Shown here: positions 41,174-64,000 of the stretch, one piece after another
Layout: the number at the start of each line of letters is the position of its first letter
Position numbering within the stretch: position 1 is the stretch's first letter
DNA from: Cyanobacteria bacterium P01_D01_bin.156
Lineage (GTDB): Bacteria > Cyanobacteriota > Cyanobacteriia > Phormidesmidales > Phormidesmidaceae
Assembly (NCBI GenBank): GCA_039024555.1
Contig: JBCCQQ010000001.1
Span: forward strand, 64,001 to 128,000
Length of the DNA stretch: 64,000 nt
Reading direction: 5' to 3'
Translations under genes and position numbers: made by a program
Notes under the pieces: model-generated
Databases searched by the model: none
What the model saw: only the letters and a program-made list of their open reading frames with translations
Told to the model about the DNA's origin: nothing

Positions 41174-41489
41174 TATCCTTCTCTTCAGAACCAGTATTTT
41201 TTCACCTTAAATACTCTCATATCAATGCTCTAACCTCTTTTAAGAGAAAGCCATTTTCTAGATCATTGATAACATCTGCGCCCTAGATATCAGGTGTGCT
41301 TGATTTTTGGCGACCTAAACCGACACTCTCTGAAGATCTCTGAACTGTATATACAACAATTCAGAAATGCTTCCGGCAATAAATCAAAGTGAGTGAGATC
41401 AGGTTTACGCCAACACTGAGCAGCTAGTTCGCGATTAGATAACCGCTGCTATCGCTAGTTTTTTTGATTATTCAGGTTTGAGGCTAAAT

Positions 41490-43025
41490 ATGAAGCTATC
41501 CCAGCCACCTAAACCAAAGCCAGCCACTTGGCGCAGATGGGCATATCGCACGGTGAACGTCTTATTGGCAAGCAGCTTATGTCAAGCACCTTTTGCTGCG
41601 ATCGCAAATGCCGAAGAGATTTACAATCGGGCTGATTATAACTATCGAGATGCCGAACGTAACATTGTTCTCGGCGGTACATCTGCAGAAGTTGTTATTG
41701 ATCCAGGAGAGCTGATTGACCCATTGGGTCAAATTCTCGGGTGTAATGGCTCCCTGCTACCTAATTATGAGGGGTTTTCCGTTGCCCTATATGAGCCTGA
41801 TGCCAGTGGCTTAGAGCTAGGCAACATCGTTCCTCTAACTAGAACAGAATTCCCTGACATCGAGAACAACGGAATTTCCGGTGGTAAGGAGCCCAATACC
41901 GAAAATAGCAACCCCTTCTTCTTAACCAATGCGGATGCAGGACAATATAACTTCCTGTTTGATACAGCGACACCTTTAGAAAGCCCCGTTAATGCAGGGT
42001 TAACCCAAACCAGTACAAATGCCCAATATATCTTGGTGGTCAATCCACCAGCAGATTCCGTATTTCCCCAACGACGAATCAAACTTGAACTAACGGACAG
42101 TACAGGTGGCGTTAACAACTCAGTCATTCGCTACACGGCGACAGCGTTAGATGGCATTCCCATCTCTACTAGTGGCGGTTCCCAGGTAAGTGCCACTGTA
42201 GTTGAAATCTTTAATGCAGAAACCCAGGGTCTGAATCTATTCTCTCTAGCTTTAGGAATGGTCATGTGCGAACCTGACCAAATTAGCATTACAAAAACGG
42301 CTGACCGAGCATCGGCCCAACCTGGCGATACGGTTGTCTATCGCTTAGGACTTAGAAACTTAACTGACATTGAATTAGATTCAGTCACTGTTGAAGATTT
42401 ATTGCCTCAGGGATTTCAATTGATTCCAGAGTCAGTAACCGGTGTTCTCAATGAACAAACCGTTGCCCTAGAGGCAGAAGCATCGGGTTCTGAAGTTATC
42501 TTTACAACTCCCACACCGTTACCTGTAGATGAGACCCTCAGTGTTCTCTATGCGACTCGGGTAACACCAGACGCCGTTCGAGGCGATGGTGAGAATTTAG
42601 CATCAGTAAGTGCTGAGCGTAGTGACAATGGTTACTTTGTTCAAGATGGTCCAGCCATCCATCGGCTCGTCATCGATCCAGGTATCGTCAATGACTGCGG
42701 TACTTTGATTGGCCGTGTCTTTATAGATAACAACTTTGACGGAGAACAACAACCCGGTGAAGCTGGCATCCCCAATGCTGTTGTCTTTTTAGACGATGGC
42801 AATCGGATTCTTACCGATGCCGATGGACTATTTTCGGTTACCTGCATGCTCCCAGGTACCCGCAGCGGCGTACTGGACTTTACGAGTCTCCCCGGTTACG
42901 CCCTAGCCCCCAATCTTTACTTTAAAGAACGCAACAGCCAGTCCCGCATGGTGAATATTTCTCCCGGTGGCATGGTGCGCATGAACTTTGGCGTCACGCC
43001 CACGTTCCAGGAGGAAGCTCAGTAA
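41490..43025 (+). CDS. Secreted DUF11 + SdrD-B-like protein; candidate base subunit
   Basis: Signal ..IANA|EEIYNRADYNY; ITKTADRASAQPGDTVVY..EDLLP..ENLASV; GRVFIDNNFDGEQQPGEAGIPNA..TDADG..MNFG. Stop overlaps next ATG (TAATG). ATG 41490 preferred over TTG 41478. Confidence 0.85.
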   Translation: MKLSQPPKPKPATWRRWAYRTVNVLLASSLCQAPFAAIANAEEIYNRADYNYRDAERNIVLGGTSAEVVIDPGELIDPLGQILGCNGSLLPNYEGFSVALYEPDASGLELGNIVPLTRTEFPDIENNGISGGKEPNTENSNPFFLTNADAGQYNFLFDTATPLESPVNAGLTQTSTNAQYILVVNPPADSVFPQRRIKLELTDSTGGVNNSVIRYTATALDGIPISTSGGSQVSATVVEIFNAETQGLNLFSLALGMVMCEPDQISITKTADRASAQPGDTVVYRLGLRNLTDIELDSVTVEDLLPQGFQLIPESVTGVLNEQTVALEAEASGSEVIFTTPTPLPVDETLSVLYATRVTPDAVRGDGENLASVSAERSDNGYFVQDGPAIHRLVIDPGIVNDCGTLIGRVFIDNNFDGEQQPGEAGIPNAVVFLDDGNRILTDADGLFSVTCMLPGTRSGVLDFTSLPGYALAPNLYFKERNSQSRMVNISPGGMVRMNFGVTPTFQEEAQ

Positions 43026-47218: not shown

Positions 47219-49392
47219 TGAAACAGAATCCTGTTACTCAACTACTTTCTCATTTATTTAATGACTCGGATGCCAGGACCATGACTTATCGACCCTCTAT
47301 ACGTACCTTAGCCACGTCTCTACTATTAGCGACTGTTGCCACAGCAGCTGTGGCACAAACGCCATCAGAGCCCAATTTACCTAAGGTGCAAGTGATGGTA
47401 AATAGTTCCCAGGATGGTCCGATTACGCCTGACGATCAGCTGACATTACGAGAAGCGATCGCACTCACCAATGGCACTCTCCTCCAGGATGAACTGAGTA
47501 ATCTAGAGCGGCAACAGATAGCACCCAGCTCGGGCAACTCCGTTATCGCCTTTGACTTACCTACTGACAGTACTACTATTCAGCTACAGTCACTCTTACC
47601 GGCACTGACGCAGCCTGGGCTAGCCATTGATGGCACGACCCAGCCTGGTTACGATGCCACCAAATCAGCAACGGCAGAAATTTTAGTAGCAACTCCTGTG
47701 GTAGAAATCACCGCTGCCGAGAACGCCGAGGTATTTCGAGGGCTAACCATCGTCGCCGATAATATTGCCATTCGTGGCCTGAGTCTCCATGGCTTCAGTT
47801 CTCAGCATAGTGCAACTGAGTCTACACCACCTGCTGATATTTTTATTGCCCACGAACTCTCTCCACCAGACATTAGTGAGCAATATATTCCCAATAATGC
47901 GTTCTCATTTTACGACGAGAACCATCCACCCAAGGGCATTGTTATTGAACAAAATTGGATTGGCATTCCCAGTAATAACAGCATTCCTCAAAAGCCTTCT
48001 GCCTTTGGTGTTTCTGTGTTTAACAGCACGGGAGTAACCCTTAAACACAACCGCATTTCATATCATGACGGAAGCGGTGTAATTACGGGTGCCCGGGCCG
48101 AGAATTTAGCAATTATTGAAAATCTTATTGTTAACAATGGATTAGCCGGCATGCCCGACGCTATTCGACTGGATGGTCGAATCGACAATGGGTTAATTAC
48201 CGGCAACCTCATGTGTGGCAATGATGGTAGTGGCATCTTTTTGTTTAAGCCCCAAGGCTCTGTTGAGATTAGCAATAACGATATTCGCTTTAATGGTCAA
48301 CGGCTACGTCGAGCAGCTATTTACCTAATGGGCAACGATCATCGGGTAGTCGATAATCACATTGCTAACCAAAAAGGTCCCGGTGTGGTCGTCACGGCCT
48401 TTAGCCAAGGGGGCACCACCCACAGCCAACGGAACATCATTGAAAACAATCACTTCAAGAATATTGAAGGCTTGAGCATTGACCTCAACACTCGCCGTAA
48501 TCGGGGTGTGCAAGACTTCCAGAGGGGAGATGGCCCTAACCCCCTCAGAGATTCTCACAACCGTCGTCGCGACACTGGCAACAGCGCTATTAACCCCCCC
48601 CAGTTTGACAGTGATGAGTTTTTTGCCATTGATGGCCAAGTTACCCTACAAGGGAAATCCGATAGTGGCTCTACGGTACAGCTCTACCTGACCCAGGGAA
48701 ATACAGGAGAATATGGCCCCTTGACTAGGCCCCTAGCAACCGTTGAAGTGAACGACGAAGGTTATTTTAGCTACGGTTCCACGGATTTGAAACCTGGAGA
48801 TGTGATCAGCGGTATTGCCACCGACCCTCGGTATGGCACCTCGGAGCCTGCCCTAAACACAGTGATAGTAGCTCTGGGAGAATCCAGCACCACACGGCCT
48901 AATCGTATGACTTTTGCCACTGATAATCCTCAGTGTACGACGCCCCCTGTGGTGCCTGAGCCGGTTACTCCGGAGCCTGAGCCTGAGGCGATCAAGCTAG
49001 AGGTACCTCGCAATGTTCACTTTGGTCTCGATGAAGATTTTATCAATCCAGACAGTGCTTTGGTGCTTAATAACATTATTACTGTCCTTCAGCAATATCC
49101 AACGATTGTTGTTGATTTACACGGGCATACTGACTCTAGAGCTAGTATCGCCTATAACCAGGGCTTAGCTAAACGTCGTGCCAATAATGCTCGACAATAC
49201 TTGATACAAAAAGGCATTGCCCCCGAGCGGATGACAATTCGCTCTTTTGGTGAGACTGAACTGCTGGTGGATGAAACCGACCGGGTAAACTACGCCCGCA
49301 ACCGTCGAGTGGAGTTTGTCTTTAGCGATGTACGCGGGATCGATATTACTTTTATAAATCAAGAAAATGATTTACAGCTTGAAGCTGAATAA
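47215..49392 (+). CDS. Right-handed beta-helix protein with C-terminal OmpA-like peptidoglycan-binding domain
   Basis: LTLREAI (CSLREA-like), beta-helix repeats, PEPEPE linker, GHTDSRAS..YNQGLAKRRA..NRRVEF; start overlaps barrel stop. Confidence 0.9.
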   Translation: MMKQNPVTQLLSHLFNDSDARTMTYRPSIRTLATSLLLATVATAAVAQTPSEPNLPKVQVMVNSSQDGPITPDDQLTLREAIALTNGTLLQDELSNLERQQIAPSSGNSVIAFDLPTDSTTIQLQSLLPALTQPGLAIDGTTQPGYDATKSATAEILVATPVVEITAAENAEVFRGLTIVADNIAIRGLSLHGFSSQHSATESTPPADIFIAHELSPPDISEQYIPNNAFSFYDENHPPKGIVIEQNWIGIPSNNSIPQKPSAFGVSVFNSTGVTLKHNRISYHDGSGVITGARAENLAIIENLIVNNGLAGMPDAIRLDGRIDNGLITGNLMCGNDGSGIFLFKPQGSVEISNNDIRFNGQRLRRAAIYLMGNDHRVVDNHIANQKGPGVVVTAFSQGGTTHSQRNIIENNHFKNIEGLSIDLNTRRNRGVQDFQRGDGPNPLRDSHNRRRDTGNSAINPPQFDSDEFFAIDGQVTLQGKSDSGSTVQLYLTQGNTGEYGPLTRPLATVEVNDEGYFSYGSTDLKPGDVISGIATDPRYGTSEPALNTVIVALGESSTTRPNRMTFATDNPQCTTPPVVPEPVTPEPEPEAIKLEVPRNVHFGLDEDFINPDSALVLNNIITVLQQYPTIVVDLHGHTDSRASIAYNQGLAKRRANNARQYLIQKGIAPERMTIRSFGETELLVDETDRVNYARNRRVEFVFSDVRGIDITFINQENDLQLEAE

Positions 49393-49523
49393 GAAATATT
49401 CTGTTGTCTTATCAGCCGCCATAGATCTTCTGAAAGATTGAAATACTCTGTTTCAATTTCGCAACGCTATTTATTGCAGGAGTCAAGTTTTCTCTTGCAT
49501 CTAGACAAGGAATTTGTTTGATT

Positions 49524-52500
49524 ATGAAATGGTCTCGTCAACAGCTTAACCACGATAATGCTGGCATCAAGCTGCTTACTAACTCTTTACGGTTAGGGCT
49601 GGGTGCCATGACCTCCGCTGCAAGCCTGTGGTTAGCGTATGGAGCAGTCTCTAGCCAAAGTGCAAATGCGGGACCACTGACCTCCATAACAACAACAACC
49701 CCACCGGCAACAAACAGCTTTATCTACACAGCGGGAGGACAGGAGCATCGATTTGGTCAAGGAAATGATGTGATCCTTCAGAGCGTTACAGATGCCTCAG
49801 GCACCTACTCTCCCGATACAGTAGCTGACCAAGTCATTGTCCGTCGAGTTGACAATGCCAATGTCTCTGGAGAAAAGTGTGGTATATTTGCCGCTCAAAG
49901 TGGTTCTAATGTGCGACATTACGGCCCAACCTATCCACACTTTTCTCCCCAAGATGCCAACGGAAACTGCTCCTATGAAGCAATTCTCAGCGGTTTTAAT
50001 ATTGGTCTTGGTGCCCTCGATTTATTTAGCAACACTCCCTCAGGTGGAGATAATGAATATAACAATGTCGAACGCATTGACTTTATCTTTAATGATGGCA
50101 TCCATGCACCATTTAACTCATCTCTGTTGAACCAGGCAGGCCACATTGTTACCGAGAAAAGTGCCAATAATGCCTACATGATTGCAGCGGTTACGGCTGT
50201 TGATGGGGCTGGCAACCCGACTGCCTATGCCACTCCAGTATGGGTGGCAGGCTATGAGGATACTTACACTCCCGCAGGCTTAACCGTAGTGCGGATGGCT
50301 CAAGTGGGAAGTGCCACTCAGAATGGGTTTTTAACCAGTGACTCCAACTCAGCACCCCATGGCGCACCTAGTAGGAAGGGAGGCCAAGCTGAAAAATTCG
50401 GTGGTGCCTTTGTCACACTCCAAGACATGGGCCTAGCAGCAGGGCAGAAGTATTATGGCTTTTCGTTTATTCCGGCAGACGTAGAGAGTGCTATCGGTAC
50501 TAGCTCCGCTGATTTATTAGATTATACGAGCTTTCCGACTACAACATCGCGGCATGCATCTGGGTATGAGCCGGGTGACGGCGATATGTTTGGGGGGACA
50601 GCGGGTTATTTTATCGCTTATTCCAGCAATAATATTAGCGGTAGTCTGTATGAAGACGACAGCCCTCAGAACAATAGCTTTGACAGTGGTAGCGAGTCGA
50701 AACTCGGTAACAATATTGAGGTAATTCTCTATGGAGATGTCAATGGTAACAACACCTACGATGCTGGGTCTGATACCATTATTGATACCACTGACACCAC
50801 TAATGGAGACTATAGTTTTACCAATATTCCAGAAGGAACCTATGGCATCTATGTCAATACAGCAGATGGTGATATTGCTAGTAATCTTAGTCTAGGTACA
50901 CCTAACAATCTCAGCGTCACTCTCAACGGAAGCGACATTACCAACCAAAACTTTGGTTTTGATTCTACAGTCGTGGGAGGTATCTGCGCTAACCCAATAT
51001 CAGGTCCATTCAACAGTTCCAACTATGCTCTAAATACTCCGCTTCAAGGCTCTCTACCGCTCTCGTTTTATGGCGGCGGCATGTTGTTCGACGCCAACCT
51101 ATCAGGAATCGCTACTTGGAAGGATGGGGTCCAGATACGGAATGATTCTACCGTAGGCCAACAAATCTTCCTGCAGCCCGAGAACGCAAGTGACTACCTC
51201 AACACAAACAACGAGGCTATTTACACCTTTACCTTTCCCAACCCAGTTACAGACCTGACGCTACAGGGGGCTGGGCTCAACAATGAAGATGGCACCACCA
51301 TTTTGCCTAGCTATCAGGGGGTACCCATTCCTACTACCTCCGCTAACTTCAGTGGCTTGAATCCTGTCCCTGGCATGAGGCTGGAAGATGCTGACGGTAA
51401 CGGTGAAAGTGATACTGTCGTTGGCAGCTCGACAGCAGGAGGGGTATCAGTAACTACCAATATTTACACCTTTACGATTCCAGGACCGGTAGACACCCTT
51501 ACTATCGTCTCAGGTAAAGACGATGTAAATAGGAATAGTACTGTCACTATTGGTTTACACTCCTTCGGATTCTGTGGAGATGGCGTTTTAGACTACGGCG
51601 ATGCGCCGGACAGCTATGGGACCAATGCTACGGATGATGGTGGAGAGGGTATTGGTCCTAGCCATGCCATTGTTAGTGGTATTCATTTAGGTACTGCACC
51701 CGATGCGGAGAGTGATGCAGAGACGCCCTTAGATGGTAGCGGTGATGGTGCTGAGGATAATGGGATTACGCTGCCTACGCTAACGGAAGGTGACACCAGC
51801 TATTCCATACCAGCAGCTAATATTAATGCAACCGGCAGTGGTACCCTTCACGCTTGGATTGATTTTAATAAGAGTGGTACGTTTGAGCCAGGTGAACACA
51901 AAAGTGTTGAGGTGATAAGTGGCACTCCAAGTGGTGCGCTGATCTGGAGTGGGATTACAGCGGGAGCGGCTGGTGATACCTATGCTCGATTTAGATTTAC
52001 ATCGGATACTAGCATTACCCTGAATACTCCTGGGGGCGCTGCCGGTGATGGTGAGGTAGAAGATTATCAGGTTGCGATTTCCACATCTGTTTTACCAACC
52101 TTTTCTTGCTCCACAAACGCTAACTTATTCAACACTGGCTACAGTGGCAGCGGTAAAGCCGCTACAGGAACACGCGATCTCAACTGGGATGTCGGGTATA
52201 TCTCCGCTGCTACTGGTTCTCCAGACATTGTTGCAGCACCGAGTAGCATTACAAATTGGGTAGATGCATATGTCACGGGAAGAGTCACAACTGCCTGGGA
52301 CCCTAGTGTGTTTGGACAAGCAGAATGGATTTCCCATGTTAATGATACTGACCATACCGGGCAGAAAGTAGATGTCTTCTATCGGTATCAATTCAATATT
52401 GATCCAGCCGTTACCTTAGACTCTTTTGCCGTACACATGGATTGGATGGCAGATAACTCCATCTGGGAGATTTACGTCAATGGCACACCCCAAAGTGGAA

Positions 52501-55373
52501 ATTTAGGTGACATACCTCAAGATCCAACCAGCCCTTACTTTCACCTAGGCTTCAAACAGGCCAATCGAGCACAAACTGTTTTAACTGAAAACTGGCAACC
52601 TGGGACTAATGAGTTAATTGTCCGGGTTCGCAGTGAACAACCCCTACAAGGATTTGTAGGAGAAATATCAGCCGATGTTCTTTGTATACCTGATTTTGGG
52701 GATGCCCCCGATACTTATGGCACCGATGCTACCGACGATAGCGGCGAAGGGATTGGCCCTAACCACATTATTGTCGGCGGCATCCATTTGGGTACCATCG
52801 CTCCTGATGCTGAAGCCAATGCTGAGACTCCACTAGATGGCACAGGCGATGGCGCTGAGGATGATGGTGTCACTATGCCTGCCTCTATTCAGCCAGGAGA
52901 GACAATTTCTCTGCCCATCACTGTTACTGGCAGCGGTAATTTGACCGCGTGGATTGACTGGAATGGCGATGGCACGTTTGCAGCGGGAGAACAGATTGCC
53001 ACCGACGCAGTCGATGGGGGTACGGGCGATACGGACGGCAACATTGATGGCACCATCACCCTGAGCGTGACTGCACCAGCCGGAGCCACTGTTATCGGTA
53101 ATACGTATGCCCGATTTCGATACAGCTCCGACACAGGGCTGGGGGCAACAGGCGCTGCCAGTGATGGTGAAGTAGAGGATTATCCACTCACTATATCTTT
53201 GCAAGACATTCCTAAAATTCCAGACTTACCGCCAATAACACCGCCAACTCCAGAGATTCCTGACTCTATTTGCGCTCTACCGGGTTCAGATGGCACAGCT
53301 GCTTTGAGTGGTGTACTGAATACTTACTATCCTGGTGTTTCATCAGCGAGTGCTGGGGCAACAACACTTTCTTTAGGACCTATCCATACTGGAGGTAATA
53401 CAACTACCATTGAAAAAGGTGACAAACTGCTGATTATTCAAATGCAGGATGCCGACATTACTTCAACCAATGCTGACACTTACGGTAGTGGCACATCTGG
53501 CACTGCAGCCAGTGGCTCCACAGCACTGAATACCGCTGGATACTATCAGTATGTTGTTGCCGACAGTGCAGTGGGTGCTGCTGGCGGTACATTACAGCTG
53601 GCGGACCCCCTTGCTTTTACTTTTACCCATAGCGATTTCTCAGGTACCTCTGGTCAGCGACGCTTCCAGGTCATTCGCATGCCACAGTACTATGATGCAT
53701 CCATTACAGGTATAGTCACCGCAGCTCCTTGGAATGGTGCTTCCGGTGGTGTGGTGGGTTTGGATGTGGCCAAAACCTTAACGTTTGCTGGCGGTACTAT
53801 CGACGTCAGTGGTCAAGGGTTTCGTGGCGGCGGTGGTCTCAATGTGCTTGGCGATGGAGTGGCCCTACCTTACCCAGGGAACACCGACTACGTTAGTCTT
53901 GCAACCAATCCTTACCATGGCTCTAAGGGAGAAGGTATTGCCGGAACCCCCCGGTACATTCGTAATGATGTAACCACCACAGTCACAGATACCGGTATTG
54001 AAGGCTACCCCAACGGTAGCTTTGGTCGCGGTGCACCCGGTAACGCAGGCGGTGGTAGCACGGACCCGAAATCGTCGGCCAACGCTGCCAATACTGGCGG
54101 CGGCGGCGGTGCCAACGGTGGCTACGGTGGCCATGGGGGCGATTCATGGATTGATACCCATGGCCGCCAACCCATGGGTGGCTTTGGTGGACAGGCATTC
54201 CCTAGCAGTTCTAGCCGGGTAATTATGGGCGGCGGTGGCGGCGCAGGCACTGCTAACAATTCGGCTGGAGGCGTTACTCCATCTGGTGGGGGCGGTGGGG
54301 GCATTGTCATCCTCCGCGCTGGCGAAATTGCAGGTTCTGGAACTATTGAAGCGAACGGCATCCAAGGGGTGGAGCCCACAGGAACTGACGGCGGCGGCGG
54401 TGGCGGTGCTGGCGGTAGTGTAGTGATGCTTTCTGTCGATCCGTCTAGTGCAACAGTGACCATCAATGCTCGAGGGGGCAGAGGTCTTGATTCTGGCTTC
54501 CGTGAACACGGCCCCGGCGGCGGCGGTGGCGGCGGCTATGTCGCCTATGATGGCATTACGCCTACGGTAGATATTGCTGGGGGTGAACCCGGTAATGACC
54601 AAGCCTCTGCTAGTACCAGCGCCGGGGCTGACCCGGCAGCGGACCCCTATGGCGCTACGGCGGGTGGTAGTGGGCTGGCACAGTCCACTACCATCCCTGA
54701 CCAGGGGGTAGAACCTGGTGGAGAATGTCTAGAGCCACAAGTTCTCTTAGTTAAGCGGATCACCGCTATCAATGGTGCTGTCAGTACCAATAATGGTGAC
54801 GATTTGGCGGCTTACATGGATGAAACATCCAATCCATATGATGACAACACTCTGACTACACCAGTTCCAACTCCCCCAGATACAGATCAGTGGCCTAATC
54901 CGAATATGAGTCTAGTCGGGGGTATCCATGGGGGAAATGTTGCATTTGATGATGAGATTGAATACACCATTTATTTTCTCTCTTCTGGAAATACGACTGC
55001 CGAGAATGTTCTCTTCTGTGACTACGTACCTGAGTTTACGAGCTTTCTCCCCAATGCCTACGCTGGCAACAGCGCCAATCCAGACGGTATCGGCATTGAT
55101 CTCAGCGTAGAACTCTTTCGCAACGGGACTACTGATTATCACACCGGAGCTAACGATGGCGACAGCGCCACCTACTTTGCCCCAGGAGTGGACCCGGCAG
55201 CCACTTTCCCCGGCATCGACTGTGAAGGCGATGAAGATAACGACCCGCTGACACCCACCACAAATACCAATAACAATGGCGCTCTAGTAGTGAATCTAGG
55301 AGATTTACCCGACGCTACATCCGACAGTACTGGAGCCTACGGCTATGTACGATTTAGAACACGGGTCAAGTAA
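49524..55373 (+). CDS. Giant adhesin 1 (SdrD-B, 2x GEVED, Gly-rich region, terminal DUF11-like domain)
   Basis: Signal ..SANA|G; two DYGDAP/DFGDAP..AWID..YARFR..GEVEDY modules; poly-Gly region; LLVKRITAING..YGYVRFRTRVK*. Confidence 0.88.
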   Translation: MKWSRQQLNHDNAGIKLLTNSLRLGLGAMTSAASLWLAYGAVSSQSANAGPLTSITTTTPPATNSFIYTAGGQEHRFGQGNDVILQSVTDASGTYSPDTVADQVIVRRVDNANVSGEKCGIFAAQSGSNVRHYGPTYPHFSPQDANGNCSYEAILSGFNIGLGALDLFSNTPSGGDNEYNNVERIDFIFNDGIHAPFNSSLLNQAGHIVTEKSANNAYMIAAVTAVDGAGNPTAYATPVWVAGYEDTYTPAGLTVVRMAQVGSATQNGFLTSDSNSAPHGAPSRKGGQAEKFGGAFVTLQDMGLAAGQKYYGFSFIPADVESAIGTSSADLLDYTSFPTTTSRHASGYEPGDGDMFGGTAGYFIAYSSNNISGSLYEDDSPQNNSFDSGSESKLGNNIEVILYGDVNGNNTYDAGSDTIIDTTDTTNGDYSFTNIPEGTYGIYVNTADGDIASNLSLGTPNNLSVTLNGSDITNQNFGFDSTVVGGICANPISGPFNSSNYALNTPLQGSLPLSFYGGGMLFDANLSGIATWKDGVQIRNDSTVGQQIFLQPENASDYLNTNNEAIYTFTFPNPVTDLTLQGAGLNNEDGTTILPSYQGVPIPTTSANFSGLNPVPGMRLEDADGNGESDTVVGSSTAGGVSVTTNIYTFTIPGPVDTLTIVSGKDDVNRNSTVTIGLHSFGFCGDGVLDYGDAPDSYGTNATDDGGEGIGPSHAIVSGIHLGTAPDAESDAETPLDGSGDGAEDNGITLPTLTEGDTSYSIPAANINATGSGTLHAWIDFNKSGTFEPGEHKSVEVISGTPSGALIWSGITAGAAGDTYARFRFTSDTSITLNTPGGAAGDGEVEDYQVAISTSVLPTFSCSTNANLFNTGYSGSGKAATGTRDLNWDVGYISAATGSPDIVAAPSSITNWVDAYVTGRVTTAWDPSVFGQAEWISHVNDTDHTGQKVDVFYRYQFNIDPAVTLDSFAVHMDWMADNSIWEIYVNGTPQSGNLGDIPQDPTSPYFHLGFKQANRAQTVLTENWQPGTNELIVRVRSEQPLQGFVGEISADVLCIPDFGDAPDTYGTDATDDSGEGIGPNHIIVGGIHLGTIAPDAEANAETPLDGTGDGAEDDGVTMPASIQPGETISLPITVTGSGNLTAWIDWNGDGTFAAGEQIATDAVDGGTGDTDGNIDGTITLSVTAPAGATVIGNTYARFRYSSDTGLGATGAASDGEVEDYPLTISLQDIPKIPDLPPITPPTPEIPDSICALPGSDGTAALSGVLNTYYPGVSSASAGATTLSLGPIHTGGNTTTIEKGDKLLIIQMQDADITSTNADTYGSGTSGTAASGSTALNTAGYYQYVVADSAVGAAGGTLQLADPLAFTFTHSDFSGTSGQRRFQVIRMPQYYDASITGIVTAAPWNGASGGVVGLDVAKTLTFAGGTIDVSGQGFRGGGGLNVLGDGVALPYPGNTDYVSLATNPYHGSKGEGIAGTPRYIRNDVTTTVTDTGIEGYPNGSFGRGAPGNAGGGSTDPKSSANAANTGGGGGANGGYGGHGGDSWIDTHGRQPMGGFGGQAFPSSSSRVIMGGGGGAGTANNSAGGVTPSGGGGGGIVILRAGEIAGSGTIEANGIQGVEPTGTDGGGGGGAGGSVVMLSVDPSSATVTINARGGRGLDSGFREHGPGGGGGGGYVAYDGITPTVDIAGGEPGNDQASASTSAGADPAADPYGATAGGSGLAQSTTIPDQGVEPGGECLEPQVLLVKRITAINGAVSTNNGDDLAAYMDETSNPYDDNTLTTPVPTPPDTDQWPNPNMSLVGGIHGGNVAFDDEIEYTIYFLSSGNTTAENVLFCDYVPEFTSFLPNAYAGNSANPDGIGIDLSVELFRNGTTDYHTGANDGDSATYFAPGVDPAATFPGIDCEGDEDNDPLTPTTNTNNNGALVVNLGDLPDATSDSTGAYGYVRFRTRVK

Positions 55374-55474
55374 CTAGCCAGCAAAACATCAAGAGAATCT
55401 ATACCCTTGCACCAATTCTAAAGATAAAAACAAACAAGCATATTCCGTAGGAGCGCGTAGTAGATCAACATAAC

Positions 55475-58400
55475 TTGATGTGCATGTTAAGCATGTTCTG
55501 CCATGCCATAGATTCACAATTGCTATCGCACATGCATCATTATGTTCACAATACTACGCTAAGCCAGAGGCCTAATACTTGCTTGTATTTTCTGGGTCAG
55601 CATAGAACCGGTATCTATCGCTGTTTTCTAAATTTAGGGCTCATCAGCCTCATGGGAATTATAGCTGTGCCCAAGGCAACAGCAGCAGTAACCACGTTTG
55701 ACATTGATGTGCGCAAGGATGGTACAGCGCCTTTTGCAGGGACTGATCCGACCTATCCTGGTACTAGCAATGCAGGAAATGATGCTAATGATAGTAATGG
55801 TATTATCCGTACCTATGACATAGCTACCTATCGGGTCCGATATGCTACAGATACTCAGCCCAATGGCAGTACAACCATTACGGCTACTATTGCTGATAAT
55901 TATCATCTTTGGGAGGAAAACCAGGCTGGGTGTCTTGGCAATGTGTCGATTAGTAGCGATCGCAAAACTCTTACCTGTACAGAATCCCTACCCACATCAA
56001 CCACCGGTTTCTTTGATTTTACAGCTGTTGTTCTAGGAACAGCCCCCCACGGTGCAGATCTGATAGTTAACGCTACTTTAAGCTCCAGTGCCACTAATCT
56101 AGCTGCAGGCCCCACCAACATCAAAGTCTCTGCAACACCACAAATGGATCTTGCCAAAGATGATTCTGGCGCTCCACGTCAGGTGGGAATAATGGCCGGA
56201 CCTAGTGGTGAAGAGGGATTAGTATACGCATGGCCCCTTTCAATCGTCGCACCAAAAGGCAGCGAAGTCCTTGGAGATGCTGATTCCACAACCCCTGGCA
56301 ATCAAATTATCATTACCGATGTAGTCAGCGGAATCTCCCCCAATGCCCGTCTATATAACTGGGGAGGCCGCTCGGGCTGTGCGCCTAATACCAAAGACAG
56401 TAATATCGCTGGCGATTGGATTAGAGATATTCCGCTTGGCTCCCTAACAATTGCTGGAGCAGGTCAAGAAGCTAATGCTGTGGCAGACTCTGGAACCTGG
56501 AACTGTAGCCAAAGCAGCGCTGGCACGGATATTACCATCACCATTACGGATGCTGATCTCACAGCAAGCCATCGTCCAACCCTTGATGCCTCTGGAGATA
56601 CCCTAAACGTTACCGACACCCATCTAGTAGCCGGGGTCGTAGAAATCTGGATACCCATGAGTGACTTCCCATCAGGGCAGAACCAATTGACAGTCACCAA
56701 TTACTACGACTTTCTAGACACTCCCAGCATTACTAACCAGACGAACACAGAGCCAGACCGAGGAAATAATAGCGTTGTTCCTATCAGCAATAGTGATGCT
56801 GTTAATAATGACCGCACCTTTACCCTACAGCGTCCACTCTCAGGACGCTCCCAGGATAAATACTATCGAACACCTTACAGCGGTGGCAATTTTAGTAACA
56901 ACAGAGTTCTTTCTCCCATGACGGATATTGAATCCGGCGATGGTGTTGTCATTCCAGGTCAGGTTTTTGGTAGTTATTTCACCATTAACAATAATGGCGT
57001 TGGGGAGCTGACCAATGTGTTTTTGTGCGACAAGTTTGACAATCGCACCCAAATTTTGGCCCCTAATCCGACTAGTGGCGAGTATGTCGAGTTGCGAACC
57101 AATGGCGATCGTCTAAAAGCATCAGATGTCACCATTGAATATGGTGTTGGCGGAGATAATGCAACAGATAATTACTACGGTAGTGAAACAGCCGCCATTG
57201 ATGATGTTAGTCGCTTTGATGCTCAGCGCAATGCCACCTGTGGGGATAGTGATGCCACCTGGTATAGCGAAACTGATTTGGCAAACGATCCGAGTTTAAT
57301 TCCGAATGTGACTCGGGTAAGAATTCGCCCCACTGCTACGAATGGGGTTCTGCCAGAAGGCTTCCGCATTGATGCGGTGCTGCATCTGCAGGCGCTTAAC
57401 GTTGATCCGGTTACTGGAGCACAGATTCCTGACCCAACGATTCTGGCTAATTTTGTGACGTCCCGCACCGATGAAGTTAACAGCGGCAACTGGGCAGTGG
57501 GGTCCTACAACCCTGTGGACCATAGTGGAAATGATGATGGCGATCGTCTACAGCTAACCCGTGCGATCGCTCGCATTGATAAAAGTACCGATGATCCTAG
57601 TAATGCGACCGAGGCAGATGACTCTCTCAGCACCGTTAGAGCCACTGAAAACATTACCTTTGCCCTTGAGTCTACCTTGACCGCCTTAACCAGCGAAGTC
57701 TCTCAGGCACAAATTATAGTCACTGACACCTTACCTGTAGAACTTAGCTATGTCACGGGCTCAGCCAATATTACTCCAGATAGTATTATTGCAAATGGCG
57801 ATGGCACCACTACTCTAAATTGGGACTTAGGCAATTACCCGATCAGTACACCAATTCCTACCATTACTTTTCAGGCCAAAGCTGGTTTTGATGTGGCAGG
57901 CGGGACAGATGCCTTAAACCAAGCATCTATTGCAGCCTTAGATACTAACGGATTAGATCTTGACACCTCCCCTTTAGCATCTCGCACGGATGTTCGGTCG
58001 ATCACTATCATTAACAATGCTGCTTTTACCATCTTCAAAGAAGCCGTTACTCCTGAGATCGATCCGGGAGATGACATTATCTATAATCTTTACCTCGCTA
58101 ACCTAAGTGAGGACACAAATGTAGCAGCAGGGTCCAGATTTATCGATATTCTCCCCTATGAAGGAGATGGAGCCATTCGAGACTCTTTTGATGGGTTAGG
58201 AACTCCTCCCACAGATTACACAGTTGCCCCAGTCTTTCAAGATATTCAGGATATTAATAATGTTGGTTTTACCTTTGAGTACACCAACGATACTCCTAGC
58301 GATATCAGTGATAATCCAGCCACTCAAAATAGCAGCACGATTTGGTGTACCCCATCTGAAATCACCAATAGCACACCAGGCTGTCCAACCACAGACTATT

Positions 58401-60100
58401 CAGATGTCACAGCTGTTTCAATTATTACACCAGCTATCAATGCAGGCGATCCAACGCACCAACTCCGTCTTACCATGACCTCTACCGGTAGCTTAGGCAA
58501 CGACATTTATACCAACAACTTTAAGGGCACCCCTGACCATCCAAGTCTAGGATTTATTCCCTCTGTTGATGCCACTGTGAGAACTCGTGCAGGCACTCCC
58601 AATCCCAGCTGTGCCCTCGGTACTGGCAATGCTGACCTTAGTATTACCCCTAATATCAGCGATGAGGTCAGGGGCAACAATACCACGACCCGAACAATTG
58701 TTGATACTCTGGACGACAGCTGGCGAACACAGGTGGGGCTACCTCAGGCAGGTACTGTTATCCCCTGGTTTGCGGCAGCACAGTCCCTTAGCAACAACGA
58801 ACCAAATTTATTTACCTACACTCTGGATGATCAAGATATCTCTGTTGGAGTAGCCCTAGTCAATATAGACGATGACAATAACTGTACAGGATCAGTCCAC
58901 ACTGGTGCAGCAGCTGAACTCAATGACAGTGACACACTGCAAGATAATGCGCCTCGACCCGCCAGCCTATATGACGACACCGTGGGAGCTGCCAATGGTC
59001 ACCCAGCTATGTGGAATGAGAATGTAGGTGCTACCGACAGCCCCAATGGTGTAATGTTTACCTTTGCCCAACCTGTGCGGGCATTCGGAGCGTGGTTTGG
59101 CGATGTGGAAACTCGCACGGATGGTAATGGAGCAGCAGCTTATTTACGTTTGCTAGATGTCAATGGCGATCGCATCGGAGCCGATATCGCTATTCAGCCC
59201 ACAAATCTCATTGAAAGTGGTGGCACTACCGCCATTAATCAAACGAACTGTGGTGGTACAGCCACCGATATCGGCTGCGGTAATCGCTCTACGCGATGGA
59301 TTAGTTTCGTCGATACAGTTGCTACGCCTAGGGTGAAACAGGCAGTACTGATTGTCGGCGATGACGATGAGGGAGGAGATGCTGGAACTGAGCATATCAG
59401 TTTTATCGGTGCCAATGTGTTAACAGCTTCCAACCCCAATGTGTTGCTTGTAAAACGAATTACCGCCATCAACGGTGAAACAACAACCAGTCAAGGCATA
59501 AATCTGGCTACCCATAATCCCACCGATTATCCCTATGACGATAACGATATTCCCTCGGTTAGCGATCCAAACCATCCTGATTACGATCCAGCCGATCCAG
59601 CTTTTGACCCCCATGAAACCAATCAATGGCCAACACCCTTAAATGCTTCGCTAGCAGGTGGTACTGATGGAGGAAATGTCTTACCCAATGATGAAATTGA
59701 GTACACTATCTATTTCCTCTCATCTGGGGACACTACGGCAGAGAATGTTCTCTTCTGCGACTATGTGCCTGCATTTACTCAATTTATTCCCAACGCCTAC
59801 AACAGCGATACTCCACAAGCCTTAGGAGGCATTGGCGGTGCCGATCTGAGTATCGAGCTCTATAGAAACAACACTACTGATTTTCACACCGGAGCAAACG
59901 ATGGTGACAGTGCCACTTACTTTGGCCCTGGCATCGATCCTGCCAGTAATTTTCCAGGCATTGACTGTGATGGTGATGGCAATGGCAGCAATAACAATAC
60001 CAACGGGGCCATTATTGTCAATTTAGGTAATCTTCCCAATGCAGCCACCAACGCCGCTGAAGCCTATGGCTACGTGAGATTCAGAACACGGGTCAAATAA
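55475..60100 (+). CDS. Giant adhesin 2 (CnaB/DUF11-like repeats, terminal DUF11-like domain)
   Basis: Signal ..KATA|A; GTAPF..GND..NGIIRTYD; K..D..N repeats; LLVKRITAING..YGYVRFRTRVK*. Start uncertain. Confidence 0.85.
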   Translation: MMCMLSMFCHAIDSQLLSHMHHYVHNTTLSQRPNTCLYFLGQHRTGIYRCFLNLGLISLMGIIAVPKATAAVTTFDIDVRKDGTAPFAGTDPTYPGTSNAGNDANDSNGIIRTYDIATYRVRYATDTQPNGSTTITATIADNYHLWEENQAGCLGNVSISSDRKTLTCTESLPTSTTGFFDFTAVVLGTAPHGADLIVNATLSSSATNLAAGPTNIKVSATPQMDLAKDDSGAPRQVGIMAGPSGEEGLVYAWPLSIVAPKGSEVLGDADSTTPGNQIIITDVVSGISPNARLYNWGGRSGCAPNTKDSNIAGDWIRDIPLGSLTIAGAGQEANAVADSGTWNCSQSSAGTDITITITDADLTASHRPTLDASGDTLNVTDTHLVAGVVEIWIPMSDFPSGQNQLTVTNYYDFLDTPSITNQTNTEPDRGNNSVVPISNSDAVNNDRTFTLQRPLSGRSQDKYYRTPYSGGNFSNNRVLSPMTDIESGDGVVIPGQVFGSYFTINNNGVGELTNVFLCDKFDNRTQILAPNPTSGEYVELRTNGDRLKASDVTIEYGVGGDNATDNYYGSETAAIDDVSRFDAQRNATCGDSDATWYSETDLANDPSLIPNVTRVRIRPTATNGVLPEGFRIDAVLHLQALNVDPVTGAQIPDPTILANFVTSRTDEVNSGNWAVGSYNPVDHSGNDDGDRLQLTRAIARIDKSTDDPSNATEADDSLSTVRATENITFALESTLTALTSEVSQAQIIVTDTLPVELSYVTGSANITPDSIIANGDGTTTLNWDLGNYPISTPIPTITFQAKAGFDVAGGTDALNQASIAALDTNGLDLDTSPLASRTDVRSITIINNAAFTIFKEAVTPEIDPGDDIIYNLYLANLSEDTNVAAGSRFIDILPYEGDGAIRDSFDGLGTPPTDYTVAPVFQDIQDINNVGFTFEYTNDTPSDISDNPATQNSSTIWCTPSEITNSTPGCPTTDYSDVTAVSIITPAINAGDPTHQLRLTMTSTGSLGNDIYTNNFKGTPDHPSLGFIPSVDATVRTRAGTPNPSCALGTGNADLSITPNISDEVRGNNTTTRTIVDTLDDSWRTQVGLPQAGTVIPWFAAAQSLSNNEPNLFTYTLDDQDISVGVALVNIDDDNNCTGSVHTGAAAELNDSDTLQDNAPRPASLYDDTVGAANGHPAMWNENVGATDSPNGVMFTFAQPVRAFGAWFGDVETRTDGNGAAAYLRLLDVNGDRIGADIAIQPTNLIESGGTTAINQTNCGGTATDIGCGNRSTRWISFVDTVATPRVKQAVLIVGDDDEGGDAGTEHISFIGANVLTASNPNVLLVKRITAINGETTTSQGINLATHNPTDYPYDDNDIPSVSDPNHPDYDPADPAFDPHETNQWPTPLNASLAGGTDGGNVLPNDEIEYTIYFLSSGDTTAENVLFCDYVPAFTQFIPNAYNSDTPQALGGIGGADLSIELYRNNTTDFHTGANDGDSATYFGPGIDPASNFPGIDCDGDGNGSNNNTNGAIIVNLGNLPNAATNAAEAYGYVRFRTRVK

Positions 60101-60234
60101 TCATGTTTAGATCTTAGAGGCAACATCTTGCTTATGGTTCATACTAAATCTTGAAAAAATGTTGAAGTAACATGTGAGCTCAGGTTTTCAAACTTGCACC
60201 TTGGATGACTAACTCCTTCCTGGCTCTTATCAGC

Positions 60235-63200
60235 TTAATTGACTTTAGCTCTAAACCGGATATAGCCATAGGCTGCACTTGTGGTTCCACCTGGGCCTAC
60301 ATGGGATACATCACCCACATCTACAACAACAGCGCCATTGTCATTAACGGCAGAACAAGTGACAGATGGAGCTTCTCCTGGATTATAGAAAGTTCCTGAA
60401 TCCCCGTCGTTGGCACTCGTGAAAAATATTGACCCTAACGCTGTTGATAATTCAATGCCCAGGTCAGTAGTGCCAATACCATCAATCGAACCAGTATTAG
60501 CATTAAAAGAGTTATTAACAAATGTGGTGTATTGAGGGACCAGATCACAGAAACCTATACCCCTAACATCAGTGCCGCCATTGGATAGGTAATAAATGGT
60601 GTACTCCAGCGTATCCCCTGAGACAATAGTGCCCCCATCGATTTCTCCTTTTAGGTAGTCATCAGGCCAATTATCATCGTTATCATTGACGTCGTTGGGG
60701 TCATCTACGATGTTTGTGAGCAACTCACCATTGATGGCCGTGATACGTTTGACTAGGACTAAATTGCTCGGCACTCGCACTGATACCGGTACGGCATTGG
60801 ATTCAAGTAACCCAAGCAAATCCTCAACTCGCCCACCCCACACGTTTGTATAAACATCACCAGACTGGTTCCCATCAGTATCCATGGTAATCACCAGGGT
60901 GCGGGTGGGAGTATTTTTGAGAAACGCAGGAGTCGCAATGCGGGTAGCTGTTACATCGGCTACTGTTGTGGGGCAGCCTGCTGTACCCAATTGAGGCAGC
61001 GTACACCACTGGGTTGCCCCCCCTGGCTGGTTAGTAGCATCCTCTGGATCAAAGCTAATACTAGCCGGAGTTGCATTGGTATAGCGAAAAGTCTCACCGT
61101 TAGTACCAGTGATACTGAAAAACTCCAAACTTCCAGAATAATTGGTAGCTGGTGTACGGCCATCTCCTATATATGGCAGGATGTCGATGAAGTCACCAGT
61201 ACCTACATCAACGGTGCCGGTGTTGGCATACTTTAGTTCATAGGTAAAACCTTCGTCCTGTTCAATTAGCTGATGCGGAACCTCTTTAACAATGCCAAAG
61301 GCAGCGGCATTACCAATAGTCACACCACGAACAGCAGTTCTAGCCGATTCGGGCGTAGCGTCATCTGGAGATTCAATGACGACTGTATTGAGAGCTTGGG
61401 TATTGTTTGGAACATCGAATTTAGCCTGAGCATCAAAGATAATCTCTGGCAGCGGTTGATTTGGCACACTGGGGCCGAAGTCCCATTGTAAAATGGTAGT
61501 GCCATCCGGATTGACAACAACAGTATCTGGAATAATATTGGCGGAGCCTGGAACATAGGTGAATTCGATGGGTAAAATATCCCGAACCAACACTTCTGGA
61601 TTAACTGGAGCTGGATCAACTATTGCTGTCACCGAAGGTTGCAAACGAAACCCAACGGTATCCCCTGCCACCATAGAGTTAACAGTGTCGTCTGGCATAG
61701 TCTCTTTAGTAACGCGGACGATGCCTCGACTTAAAAACAGACGATCGCCCCAGGCTTTACTACCAGTATGGTTGCTGGGGACATAGGTTCCGTGGTACCA
61801 ACCATTGCGCGCATTGGCGTTAGATACTGTCCACGGCAAGGTAGGTGTACTCACAGCCGAGAAGTTGGGCATCAGAGCACCCGTCGGAATTTTGGTGGTA
61901 GTGCCGGGATAAAAGTTGCGGGCAATGAAGTTTACAGCTAGGTCCATGGTAGAGCCTGCAGGAAAGTCTTCTAATGCAATAAATCGAATTTTGGTGATGA
62001 CATCCACACCACCGGGTACCGCCGTCATATCGGTATACCAGCCGTCAGCACTTTCTGCATCATTACAGGTGGCAGTACGCATGGCATCGTAGCTAGAGTA
62101 GGTGCCAGCATTGCCGTTTTCATCTCCGGTTCCATACTCAATTTTATAGTCATAGGCAGGACCACCGTTAAACACTCGCACAGCGGTCGTTGAGTCACCA
62201 GGGATGGGAGTAAGTTGGAGGGTGTTGCTATCGAACTTTTCGCAGTAGCGGTAATCTTCCCAATCTAAAATAGCATTGTTATGACCATAGAGACGTTTGG
62301 CAAAGTTTTGCCCCGGCATAACTACGCCATCGCCACTGTTGCGATTGGTCATCGGGAAAAGTATGCTCCCTCTAGCAGTAATGCTACGGGAGTAGTATTG
62401 ATTAAAGCTACCGCCTGCAGCAATTAGGGTGAAGGTACGGGTATTGTTATCGGGATCATTATTGGTGCTCGGAGTGGATGGATCGTTGTTAGTTTGACCG
62501 CTAACGCTTTGATTAGTGACTCGGGAGTACTGATTAGTAAGTTTGAGGTCACCACCATTGTCTAGAATTTCGGAGGTGGGAATCCATATTTCAATGGTCC
62601 CTGAAATCAGGTAAGACTCATTTGCCGGTAACGAGCCCCCACTACGGTGCTGTGAGGGTACATGGTTGCCAGTGGTGTCTGCGCCAGTGATGGTAATCGT
62701 AATGGGGTCGCCGGGATTAGCCTGACTACAGCTCCAGTCACCGGAATCGGCTACTGCACGTTCGGGGTTAGCACCTGCCACCGATAGATTACCGTGAGGT
62801 AAGAACCATTCTCCAATATTATTTTGACCTGGCTCTGAGTTCCAGGCACAGCCTCGGTGATTCCCCCCCCAGTCATACAGCCTGGCACCGGGTACCGGAG
62901 ATTCGGCTACACCATCCTTACCATTCGGGTCACTCAAGAAGTCACCAAATAACGTATCGGTGATGACGATATCGCCCACTAGGGGCTCACTTCCTTTGCC
63001 ATTTGGACCTGCCAGCATGGTCAGGGGATAGCGAACAACAACCCCGTCTGTACCATCGGGAGCCTGACGTACACCTAACTGTCGAGAAGAACGATTTTTA
63101 CGCAGGTCGGCTTGGGGGCTCGCAGAAACGATGGTTTCGACGACCGGGGCAGTGACTGAAGCCGATGTATCAGATGAAAACTCACCCGTTGCTGCAACGA

Positions 63201-63687
63201 TATCGTTGTTGGCAACGTAGGTGCTGTCCGGGCGCTGACCAATGACCCGTGCCGAAATTTCGATAAAGCCATTGCTGCCGCTGGCAATATCTCCTAGATA
63301 GCAGTCAACGGTTTGGGAGTCATCAGGCTCAATGACGATAGCTGATGGCGGCTTGCAAACAGCCGGTAGCTCAGTCCATTCTTGATCAGAGGAAATATTA
63401 GCTGTAAGGACGACGTTTTCTGCATCGCCGTTATTGACGGCATATTCCCATTTATAGATAATTTCGTCCAGAGTGCGGATAATGTTATTAGTCGGGCTGG
63501 AGTCGTTTCCAGGCGAGTCATCGGCGCTAAAGGGAGTCGTACCGGTGACGCTGGTGGAGAAGTTAAAGGTAATATCTGCCGCATTGGCCGGTGATGCAAT
63601 GTTGAGAAGTAGCGAAATCGCAACTCCAATCGCAAAATAAAATATTCTCAGCTTTGGTAAAGCTATTGGGTAACGAAACCGTTGCAT
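60235..63687 (-). CDS. Giant adhesin 3, paralog of adhesin 2, convergent
   Basis: Signal ..PANA|A; GTTPF..GNDS..NNIIRTLD; LVLVKRITAING..YGYIRFRAKVN*. ATG 63687 preferred. Confidence 0.88.
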   Translation of the reverse strand: MQRFRYPIALPKLRIFYFAIGVAISLLLNIASPANAADITFNFSTSVTGTTPFSADDSPGNDSSPTNNIIRTLDEIIYKWEYAVNNGDAENVVLTANISSDQEWTELPAVCKPPSAIVIEPDDSQTVDCYLGDIASGSNGFIEISARVIGQRPDSTYVANNDIVAATGEFSSDTSASVTAPVVETIVSASPQADLRKNRSSRQLGVRQAPDGTDGVVVRYPLTMLAGPNGKGSEPLVGDIVITDTLFGDFLSDPNGKDGVAESPVPGARLYDWGGNHRGCAWNSEPGQNNIGEWFLPHGNLSVAGANPERAVADSGDWSCSQANPGDPITITITGADTTGNHVPSQHRSGGSLPANESYLISGTIEIWIPTSEILDNGGDLKLTNQYSRVTNQSVSGQTNNDPSTPSTNNDPDNNTRTFTLIAAGGSFNQYYSRSITARGSILFPMTNRNSGDGVVMPGQNFAKRLYGHNNAILDWEDYRYCEKFDSNTLQLTPIPGDSTTAVRVFNGGPAYDYKIEYGTGDENGNAGTYSSYDAMRTATCNDAESADGWYTDMTAVPGGVDVITKIRFIALEDFPAGSTMDLAVNFIARNFYPGTTTKIPTGALMPNFSAVSTPTLPWTVSNANARNGWYHGTYVPSNHTGSKAWGDRLFLSRGIVRVTKETMPDDTVNSMVAGDTVGFRLQPSVTAIVDPAPVNPEVLVRDILPIEFTYVPGSANIIPDTVVVNPDGTTILQWDFGPSVPNQPLPEIIFDAQAKFDVPNNTQALNTVVIESPDDATPESARTAVRGVTIGNAAAFGIVKEVPHQLIEQDEGFTYELKYANTGTVDVGTGDFIDILPYIGDGRTPATNYSGSLEFFSITGTNGETFRYTNATPASISFDPEDATNQPGGATQWCTLPQLGTAGCPTTVADVTATRIATPAFLKNTPTRTLVITMDTDGNQSGDVYTNVWGGRVEDLLGLLESNAVPVSVRVPSNLVLVKRITAINGELLTNIVDDPNDVNDNDDNWPDDYLKGEIDGGTIVSGDTLEYTIYYLSNGGTDVRGIGFCDLVPQYTTFVNNSFNANTGSIDGIGTTDLGIELSTALGSIFFTSANDGDSGTFYNPGEAPSVTCSAVNDNGAVVVDVGDVSHVGPGGTTSAAYGYIRFRAKVN

Positions 63688-64000
63688 GATAGACCCTGAC
63701 AAGAAACTCTTGGACAGGACAACAAAAATAGCGCGTATTTTGTGATGTCCTCAAGCCTGGTAGATGGCTATGATAATGGACTTAAAGCACCATATTTAAG
63801 CTACCCGTCAGGGATCAATCAATTTATAGGCATATTAGCCGAAAGTAAAAGACTAAATTCATCAGTGATTCAGCAAATTTACAGTCTTTCAACACTCCTC
63901 TCAAATTTTGAAAAACCTAAACATGAGGTTTTTTGCCATTATCCAACGTCATTCATCGTTGCTGATTCAACCAAGAAAACAATGCATTAACATTATTAGC

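Follow-up and report, generated by a model that had tools for sequence, protein, structure and literature searches.

The stretch of DNA considered here (the window) comprises 64,000 nucleotides of Cyanobacteria bacterium P01_D01_bin.156 (G000 C1:64001-128000). It carries a gene cluster in which A (930 amino acids, aa), B (193 aa), C (515 aa), D (1397 aa), E (725 aa), T1 (1951 aa) and T2 (1541 aa) follow one another on the plus strand, with T3 (1155 aa) placed convergently on the minus strand. A first-pass annotation had described T1–T3 as three adhesins sharing a C-terminal acceptor-like domain. The follow-up presented here suggests that this domain, the tail, is probably the acceptor half of a split isopeptide domain of the CLIPPER (DUF11, CnaA-type) family, through which interchangeable adhesins would be attached to a surface fibre of the donor-strand kind. 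As described in the available part of the paper that uses the name CLIPPER for DUF11, the complete domain has a CnaA-like fold with a Lys–Asn bond and a catalytic Asp (PMC12617251).

Each of T1, T2 and T3 is an intact long open reading frame (ORF; start codons and signal-peptide cuts were judged by eye) that terminates in one and the same domain of approximately 175–220 aa, with the stop codon directly after its last strand. Over aligned columns the tails of T2 and T3 are 67 % and 45 % identical to that of T1, and the BLAST identities are 58–59 % between T1 and T2 and 35–39 % between T3 and the others. Local alignments of the tails score 673, 332 and 338, compared with maxima of 76, 68 and 66 in 300 shuffles; the shared C-terminal motif noticed earlier is therefore upheld by alignment and shuffled controls alike. 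The family model TIGR01451 matches all three tails above its cut-off of 24 (T1, 25.4 bits; T2, 36.5; T3, 29.6), PF01345 (DUF11) was not reported on T1–T3 at E 0.01, and a profile–profile comparison of the tail with complete repeats gave 94 % probability over 44 columns. A fourth, divergent tail is encoded elsewhere in the source genome (C17:4596-7787, minus strand); it was recovered with wider profiles (E 1.4e-12 and 7.5e-39), and the profile of three tail sequences failed to detect it at E 1. An atlas search returned unnamed and DUF11 clusters and nothing else, and the relatives are cyanobacterial.

Conservation was assessed in 123 tail rows, made up of the three window tails and 120 listed homologues of 210 (T3 among them; proteins of 635–2022 aa). 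The Lys, the Arg that follows it, the Cys and the Asp are kept in 123/123 rows and the second Cys in 122/123, and among the locus tails Lys is found in 47/48, Asp in 48/48 and exactly two Cys in 46/48. The Arg (window 54753-54758, together with the Lys, and the equivalent positions) is invariant in tails, though not in the acceptor of A or in ordinary repeats. Since the two Cys are conserved together, a disulfide between them, one of the two standing beside the catalytic Asp, is likely and would stabilize the unfinished fold, in agreement with the FCD..C disulfide suggested previously. The catalytic pair being invariant, the term 'attachment half-domain' is preferred over the 'sorting tag' of the first-pass annotation, which fits less well.

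The terminal position of the domain, for which the first-pass annotation had proposed a check by profile, was confirmed. The domain lies no more than 3 aa from the protein end in 119/120 listed homologues, and the remaining one extends 14 aa further. Among the 150 best profile matches in 1.8 billion representatives, 60 of those with at least 80 bits are terminal and none is internal, and weak internal stretches in the same search number 38 at ≥30 bits, 1 at ≥50 and 0 at ≥80. Giant DUF11 repeat proteins, matched weakly and in part, made up most of the output of the whole-library profile search, and the notion that the domain is often internal holds for the generic DUF11 core only. Looking for short stand-alone carriers of the tail yielded 29 matches, several of them labelled partial.

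The putative donors are located in A and C. The relatives of both proteins carry, directly after the apparent signal peptide, a hairpin of the form I-x-N-(T/Q/R)-A ... S-N-x-V, which resembles the pair of strands that ends a complete repeat and contains an Asn that is invariant in 38/38 aligned A and C hairpins. The donor had been pictured as a single strand present on A alone; it is instead a two-strand hairpin, and C bears it as well. A profile of this hairpin, from the training of which three loci were left out, detects it in 21/22 A and 35/37 C proteins and finds no N-terminal hairpin in B (0/20), D (0/39) or E (0/18). T1–T3 lack the donor motif in their first 150 aa by regular expression and give no match to the donor profile anywhere (0/3), which sustains the earlier statement that they have no N-terminal donor. 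The C-terminal acceptor of A retains its Lys in 22/22 relatives and its acid, as Glu or Asp, in 22/22. The complete domain of C keeps all three residues (K273 in 36/37, D307 in 37/37 and N373 in 37/37). In B, the Lys in register is absent from 21/21 proteins (Ala or Gly stands there), a Lys occurs two places further on in 15/21, and Gln replaces the Asp in 17/21.

The T3 tail was modelled with AlphaFold2 from a 47-row alignment. The model is all-beta (predicted local distance difference test score, pLDDT, 90.6), and the structures that match it best are, for the most part, pilin and adhesin domains of the CnaA type (Z 5.7–7.9). The tail profile gave 0 matches to PDB sequences at E 1, and the DUF11 domain of C found 9IFR alone (E 0.24); 9IFR aligns to the tail model with Z 6.1 and a root-mean-square deviation of 2.2 over 87 residues. 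Model residues 1/2–177 align to residues 187–307 of 2X9Z, 182–289 of 4HSS, 172–282 of 7LGR and 182–680 of 3TXA. With the first strand taken as gap-free, residue K7 of the model (K985 of T3) falls on the bonding Lys of these domains (193, 187, 177 and 188, respectively), and the alignment stops 11, 10, 9 and 12 residues short of the bonding Asn (318, 299, 291 and 692). The bonding residues are those given in Table 1 of the accessible portion of PMC12617251, of which 4/4 checkable entries agree; 3OPU, matched on a domain other than the one tabulated, and 9IFR, which is numbered differently, were left out of the register count. The ordinary repeats upstream of the tails, chosen by a start motif that includes the Lys, keep the Asn and then a last strand in 70/70 repeats from 25 proteins. 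The residues and the modelled register against solved domains support the first-pass view that the tail keeps Lys and Asp and ends without an Asn strand, and, by prediction, the tail is a CnaA-type domain left unfinished, an acceptor half without its last two strands.

Table 1. Features of the cluster, in window coordinates.
Feature	Position	Strand	Description
A, 930-aa putative shaft subunit	37645..40437	+	N-terminal donor hairpin, DUF7925 domain, C-terminal acceptor (K761, E815)
Donor hairpin of A, residues ~44-74	37774..37866	+	Asn48 at 37786
B, 193-aa acceptor-like protein	40560..41141	+	without Lys in register, without donor
C, 515-aa putative base subunit	41478..43025	+	N-terminal donor hairpin, complete CLIPPER domain, SdrD_B-like end
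Donor hairpin of C, residues ~47-75	41616..41702	+	Asn50 at 41625
D, 1397-aa predicted very large outer-membrane beta-barrel	43025..47218	+	structure model
E, 725-aa beta-helix and OmpA peptidoglycan-binding protein	47215..49392	+	family matches; optional in relatives
T1, 1951-aa putative adhesin	49518..55373	+	SdrD_B-like, two GEVED, AgmC_N-like region, acceptor tail; without donor hairpin
T1 C-terminal acceptor half-domain	54735..55373	+	K1746 at 54753, C1834-D1835 at 55017-55022, C1902 at 55221
T2, 1541-aa putative adhesin	55475..60100	+	ORF; without donor hairpin
T2 C-terminal acceptor half-domain	59435..60100	+	K1327 at 59453, C1428-D1429 at 59756-59761, C1498 at 59966
T3, 1155-aa putative adhesin	60235..63702	-	convergent to T2; without donor hairpin
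T3 C-terminal acceptor half-domain (the one modelled)	60235..60768	-	K985 at 60750, C1052-D1053 at 60549-60544, C1116 at 60357

The model of D (pLDDT 81) contains about 39 long strands, by our own count from the strand list, and its fold matches are all outer-membrane barrels with low TM-scores and no specific tie to ushers. Residues 1264–1681 of T1 (window 53300-54560) match the Myxococcus AgmC N-terminal domain model with E 9e-35, under the curated cut-off. Two kinase genes, one of the Ser/Thr type and the other for a GAF histidine kinase, lie just upstream of A (window 33241-37006). Promoter and terminator scans gave chance level only (24 vs 22.8 and 10 vs 12.5, respectively).

The tally of donors and acceptors points to a single order of assembly, with an acceptor-only adhesin followed by any dual carriers and A repeats and then by the donor-only C. 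After Sec export, the tail would accept the Asn-bearing hairpin of A or C, which would supply the last two strands and complete the sandwich; a self-made Lys–Asn bond, catalysed by the Asp of the tail, would then lock the pair. That the hairpin completes the tail domain can be regarded with considerable confidence, and, if it does so, the confidence that the lock is covalent is equally considerable. In the long operon, as found in the window, the resulting chain would read adhesin–(A)n–C–barrel D. B occurs only with A and is without the reactive pair, and is therefore likely to be an unreactive cap or chaperone for the hairpin of A, which it would cover without reacting until assembly. The docking of C on D is likely, because their genes overlap (the 3′ end of C runs into the start of D) and their linkage is constant. 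Taken together, swappable covalent attachment of this kind is likely, its binding, bond and fibre being predicted from residues, register and linkage.

Being without hairpins, T1–T3 would start the chain and hence occupy its far end; this distal position is highly probable, and the three proteins would represent alternative tips. The earlier proposal of acceptor-only tip subunits stands for T1–T3, while it does not extend to the domain in general, since an N-terminal donor hairpin is also present in 2/44 tail carriers encoded at the loci and in 11/120 listed homologues. One further homologue scores 7 on the donor profile and looks real, and among carriers with a crude signal-like start the hairpin occurs in 10/100. 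The hairpins of these dual carriers resemble that of A, and such proteins (~10 %) may act as adaptor or in-chain adhesins. At L068:1666-9949 (G243), three tail genes stand next to one another, two of which encode a donor hairpin and one of which does not, forming a candidate tip and adaptor chain.

The distribution of the system was surveyed in 301 genomes drawn across the cyanobacterial phylum, in which absence means that nothing was found with the queries used. The tail was found in 41 genomes with a narrow profile and in 42 with a wide one (43 in union), and barrel D in 44. All 43 tail genomes have the barrel, and the 257 barrel-less genomes gave no tail match; the co-occurrence with the barrel gene that had been anticipated was thus observed (tail in 43/44 barrel genomes and 0/257 others). 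Within genomes, one second fragment having been dropped from each of the tail and barrel match lists before counting, 57/64 tail matches lie no more than 16 kb from a barrel match, and the other 7 are on contigs without one. The 36 genomes with a match to A include two that lack the barrel and yield only partial matches in much longer proteins; these second-half matches (G023 C1:1825475-1826542 and G213 C1:2431232-2432206) lie inside proteins of 2400–2700 aa. B was likewise found in 36 genomes, 34 of them the same cyanobacterial genomes as for A. In seven cyanobacterial genomes (G002, G047, G083, G089, G093, G173 and G247), tail and barrel are present and neither A nor B was found.

Among 41 fetched loci, 19 are long, 17 short and 5 partial, lone or of another class. 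The long operon has the order A-B-C-D-[E]-adhesins. The short operon consists of a C of 260–370 aa, D, optional E and, where the contig reaches, adhesins, and neither A nor B lies in the upstream DNA, of which 3.7 kb or more was covered. The tie of the tail to barrel and shaft implied earlier therefore holds for the barrel only, the shaft being dispensable in 17 short loci and seven genomes. The source genome itself has such a shaftless locus (L001, C17:4596-14415), where relatives of C, D and E were found and none of A or B: it encodes a short C, the barrel, an OmpA protein and a 1063-aa tail protein in which three repeats with Lys, Asp and Asn (assigned by eye) precede the divergent tail. 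It adjoins ORFs resembling glycosyltransferases and sulfotransferases, also by eye. In short loci C keeps its Asn hairpin, and the adhesin tail is the sole acceptor encoded, which constitutes the strongest genetic argument for a pairing of tail and hairpin. In such loci C would catch the adhesin directly, which would be displayed on D as a one-subunit stub.

Several loci depart from these two arrangements or extend them. At L058:5630-11580 (G273), B is flanked by two A paralogues with an adhesin upstream, and two more tail genes lie on contig C86. Outside the cyanobacterial class, L048 (G016) contains an operon of B, an A-like gene, a long C (1421 aa) and D, and its A-like protein combines a donor hairpin with a Cys-free acceptor. 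A complete long operon is carried on a plasmid of the cultured strain Synechococcus sp. NIES-970 (AP017960.1, NIES970_28270-28230, L072:4974-20844), where all genes are annotated as hypothetical; at its C-terminus the barrel of this strain gives an OmpA-like match, suggestive of a fusion of the anchor of E to D. Distant relatives of D with 24–28 % identity occur on proteobacterial plasmids, several being annotated as TonB-dependent receptors and one following a gene with an SdrD_B domain (L073).

Comparison of tails with the proteins that bear them indicates shuffling between bodies and tails. In a tree built from 47 tails (L048 was left out of this tree and of one alignment, A2), those of T1 and T2 are sisters (100/100), and their bodies give no BLAST match to each other; conversely, the bodies of T2 and T3 are 36 % identical over approximately 1000 aa and their tails are distant. 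The tails of long and short operons form separate groups, a single change being required (95/75, not starred), even within one genome; in this tree, two loci count as short on the ground that neither A nor B was found in their genomes. The cargoes of tail relatives include lectin-like, SdrD_B, DUF11, GEVED and DUF7933 arrays, and on account of these domain families the tail proteins are inferred to be adhesins.

The short loci also speak for a different division of labour, in which the tail would be caught only by C, giving one adhesin per barrel, whereas A and B would build a separate polymer and T1–T3 would be anchored adhesins rather than pilus tips. Such an arrangement would account for the 17 loci that encode just C, D, optional E and adhesins, and C indeed stands beside every fetched tail-bearing barrel locus with visible upstream DNA. 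It is nevertheless unlikely, given that the tails cluster by operon type, at the support quoted above, as if tuned to different donors, that the hairpins of dual carriers look like those of A, and that a polymer of A requires an acceptor-only starter, a part that B, without the reactive pair, is poorly suited to play.

Very unlikely is a second possibility, namely that D reads the tail as an export signal, non-covalent or cleaved, much as SprA reads the type IX C-terminal domain, with the hairpins serving A and C only. The strictly terminal position of the tail on very varied cargo would be expected of such a signal, as would the fact that it is never found without the barrel and often without the shaft; moreover, the weak fold matches of D, itself a very large barrel, include SprA entries. 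An export signal would not, however, be expected to keep the isopeptide pair of Lys and Asp invariant and in register, nor would it explain why the C of short loci retains its Asn hairpin when only the adhesin tail could accept it, and Por_Secre_tail, the type IX C-terminal domain family, is unmatched on T1–T3.

Some observations nonetheless weigh against a split isopeptide domain. The Z-scores of the structural matches remain below 8, the level that the tool takes to indicate more than a common arrangement, Foldseek returned nothing for the tail model at E ≤ 0.001, and, only the ends of the alignment ranges being visible, the Lys register assumes a gap-free first strand. The hairpin and the acceptor of A compare weakly with complete repeats (probability 0.7 % and 16 %; score 2.0), and the donor counts in A and C are circular because the profile was trained on these proteins. 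The genomes surveyed are kin, so the co-occurrence counts are not independent, and the loci from which the broad tail profile derives lie on the barrel side. One barrel genome (G115) has no tail or C that could be found and contains a lone barrel (L046:7630-11559), and a lone A-like gene without the operon occurs at L070:6669-9068 (G217). No holder with RNA data was among the sequencing runs listed. Finally, AlphaFold models the tail confidently without a partner, and its large insertions could cover the open edge. These last two points, along with the two Cys, which like the long insertions are not shared by ordinary repeats, a conserved Asn in an NG motif (N1120, 98/123 rows) and the lack of the bond in some DUF11 domains mentioned in the available text of PMC12617251, favour a self-contained DUF11-like domain that has lost its Asn strand, is closed by insertions and the disulfide or by its own Asn, and needs no partner. 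This explanation is very unlikely, since invariant Lys and Asp are unexpected without an Asn, the NG Asn lies before an inner strand and not before the Asn strand, and it accounts neither for the orphan Asn hairpins of A and C nor for the lack of tail matches in the barrel-less genomes.

The split-domain reading would offer a mechanism and a parts list for an operon that is annotated as hypothetical or 'DUF11/beta strand repeat' and occurs in approximately one in seven sampled genomes (43/301). If it is true, the operon specifies a type of covalent pilus, independent of sortase, in outer-membrane bacteria, and the shaftless minimal form (base, barrel and adhesin) makes the mechanism testable with three genes. 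Tail–hairpin pairs would then serve as naturally occurring catcher/tag reagents, perhaps available in sets orthogonal to one another, and would open a way of displaying proteins on the cyanobacterial surface. The chances are about even that two-membrane bacteria have here a covalent surface-display system of a class of its own, where the naturally split domain serves as a genetically encoded catcher/tag pair and any cargo fused to the tail is joined, independently of sortase, to the A polymer or the barrel-bound C; orthogonal tail–hairpin pairs would separate the long and short systems of one cell, and the source genome would switch among its three tips on one fibre.

In chaperone–usher adhesins such as FimH and PapG, an unfinished C-terminal Ig-like domain is completed by the N-terminal strand of the next subunit. 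The window operon appears similar in its outer-membrane barrel, shaft, small chaperone-like protein, incomplete adhesin end and N-terminal donors, as judged from sequences and models. It differs in its two-strand donor with an invariant Asn, its predicted covalent lock, its multi-domain subunits of 500–2000 aa, its shaftless form and its fold family. No usher match was obtained on D with Pfam or NCBIfam, PapC and FimD appearing only among generic barrel matches (TM ~0.2), and no PapD-like chaperone family was found on the eight operon proteins, B being DUF11-like. The Jo-In system is an engineered split of the isopeptide domain of RrgA, the two fragments of which reportedly join covalently. 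Its structure (PDB 5MKC) is among the structural matches of the tail model, and the CnaA-type split that is engineered there is apparently natural and cluster-wide here.

Close counterparts are the intramolecular CLIPPER/DUF11 isopeptide domains (PF01345, PDB 9IFR; PMC12617251), which, in the available part of that paper, share the CnaA-like sandwich, the first-strand Lys, the catalytic Asp and frequent disulfides. As described there, they carry Lys, Asp and Asn in one chain and act as internal stalk repeats, whereas here the Asn resides on another gene product and the half-domain comes last; the tail has no same-chain Asn strand, its chain ending 9–12 residues before the Asn position. The WxL/Elr tip adhesins of Enterococcus also combine an invariant C-terminal module with a variable payload, the module being completed by a pilin donor strand, and a few of them both donate and accept, according to the accessible portion of the preprint (bioRxiv 10.64898/2026.10.17.759780). 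That portion describes a WxL fold, sortase anchoring and occurrence in Bacillota only, and makes no mention of an isopeptide triad, in contrast to the DUF11 fold, outer-membrane barrel and Asn hairpin of the cyanobacterial system. The WxL family gave no match on T1–T3, and the window operon, with its barrel and OmpA protein, is cyanobacterial and shows no sortase-anchored Bacillota base, although no genome-wide search for sortases was made.

The proposed chemistry is paralleled by BsaA of Clostridium perfringens, in which, as far as the available text describes it, the Asn of an N-terminal donor strand bonds the Lys of the next subunit with an acid in the acceptor (N35, K74 and E56; bioRxiv 10.1101/2024.11.04.621531). 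The window system is comparable, by residue distribution, in having the donor Asn on one chain and Lys and acid on the acceptor. BsaA itself is presented as a TasA-family homopolymer of a one-membrane bacterium that involves SipW, and neither a barrel nor cargo-bearing acceptor tails are described in that text; Pfam matches to TasA/camelysin were not obtained on A, B, C or T1–T3. Archaeal threads of Sulfolobus are donor-strand filaments in which isopeptide bonds link the subunits and a cap is presumed, but in the part of the paper available Asn57 bonds the N-terminal amine of subunit n+2, the cap is donor-only and the proteins are unrelated (PMC9715654). The literature search, which largely covered openly accessible papers, found no description of this operon system, and what could be read of the DUF11 literature on the grappling hooks of Litorilinea and the signal peptides of Synechococcus deals with other subjects. 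By analogy, the system of the window would act like a chaperone–usher or WxL tip adhesin to which the exchange-and-lock of BsaA has been added, and yet, by the tests run, it is a member of none of these families.

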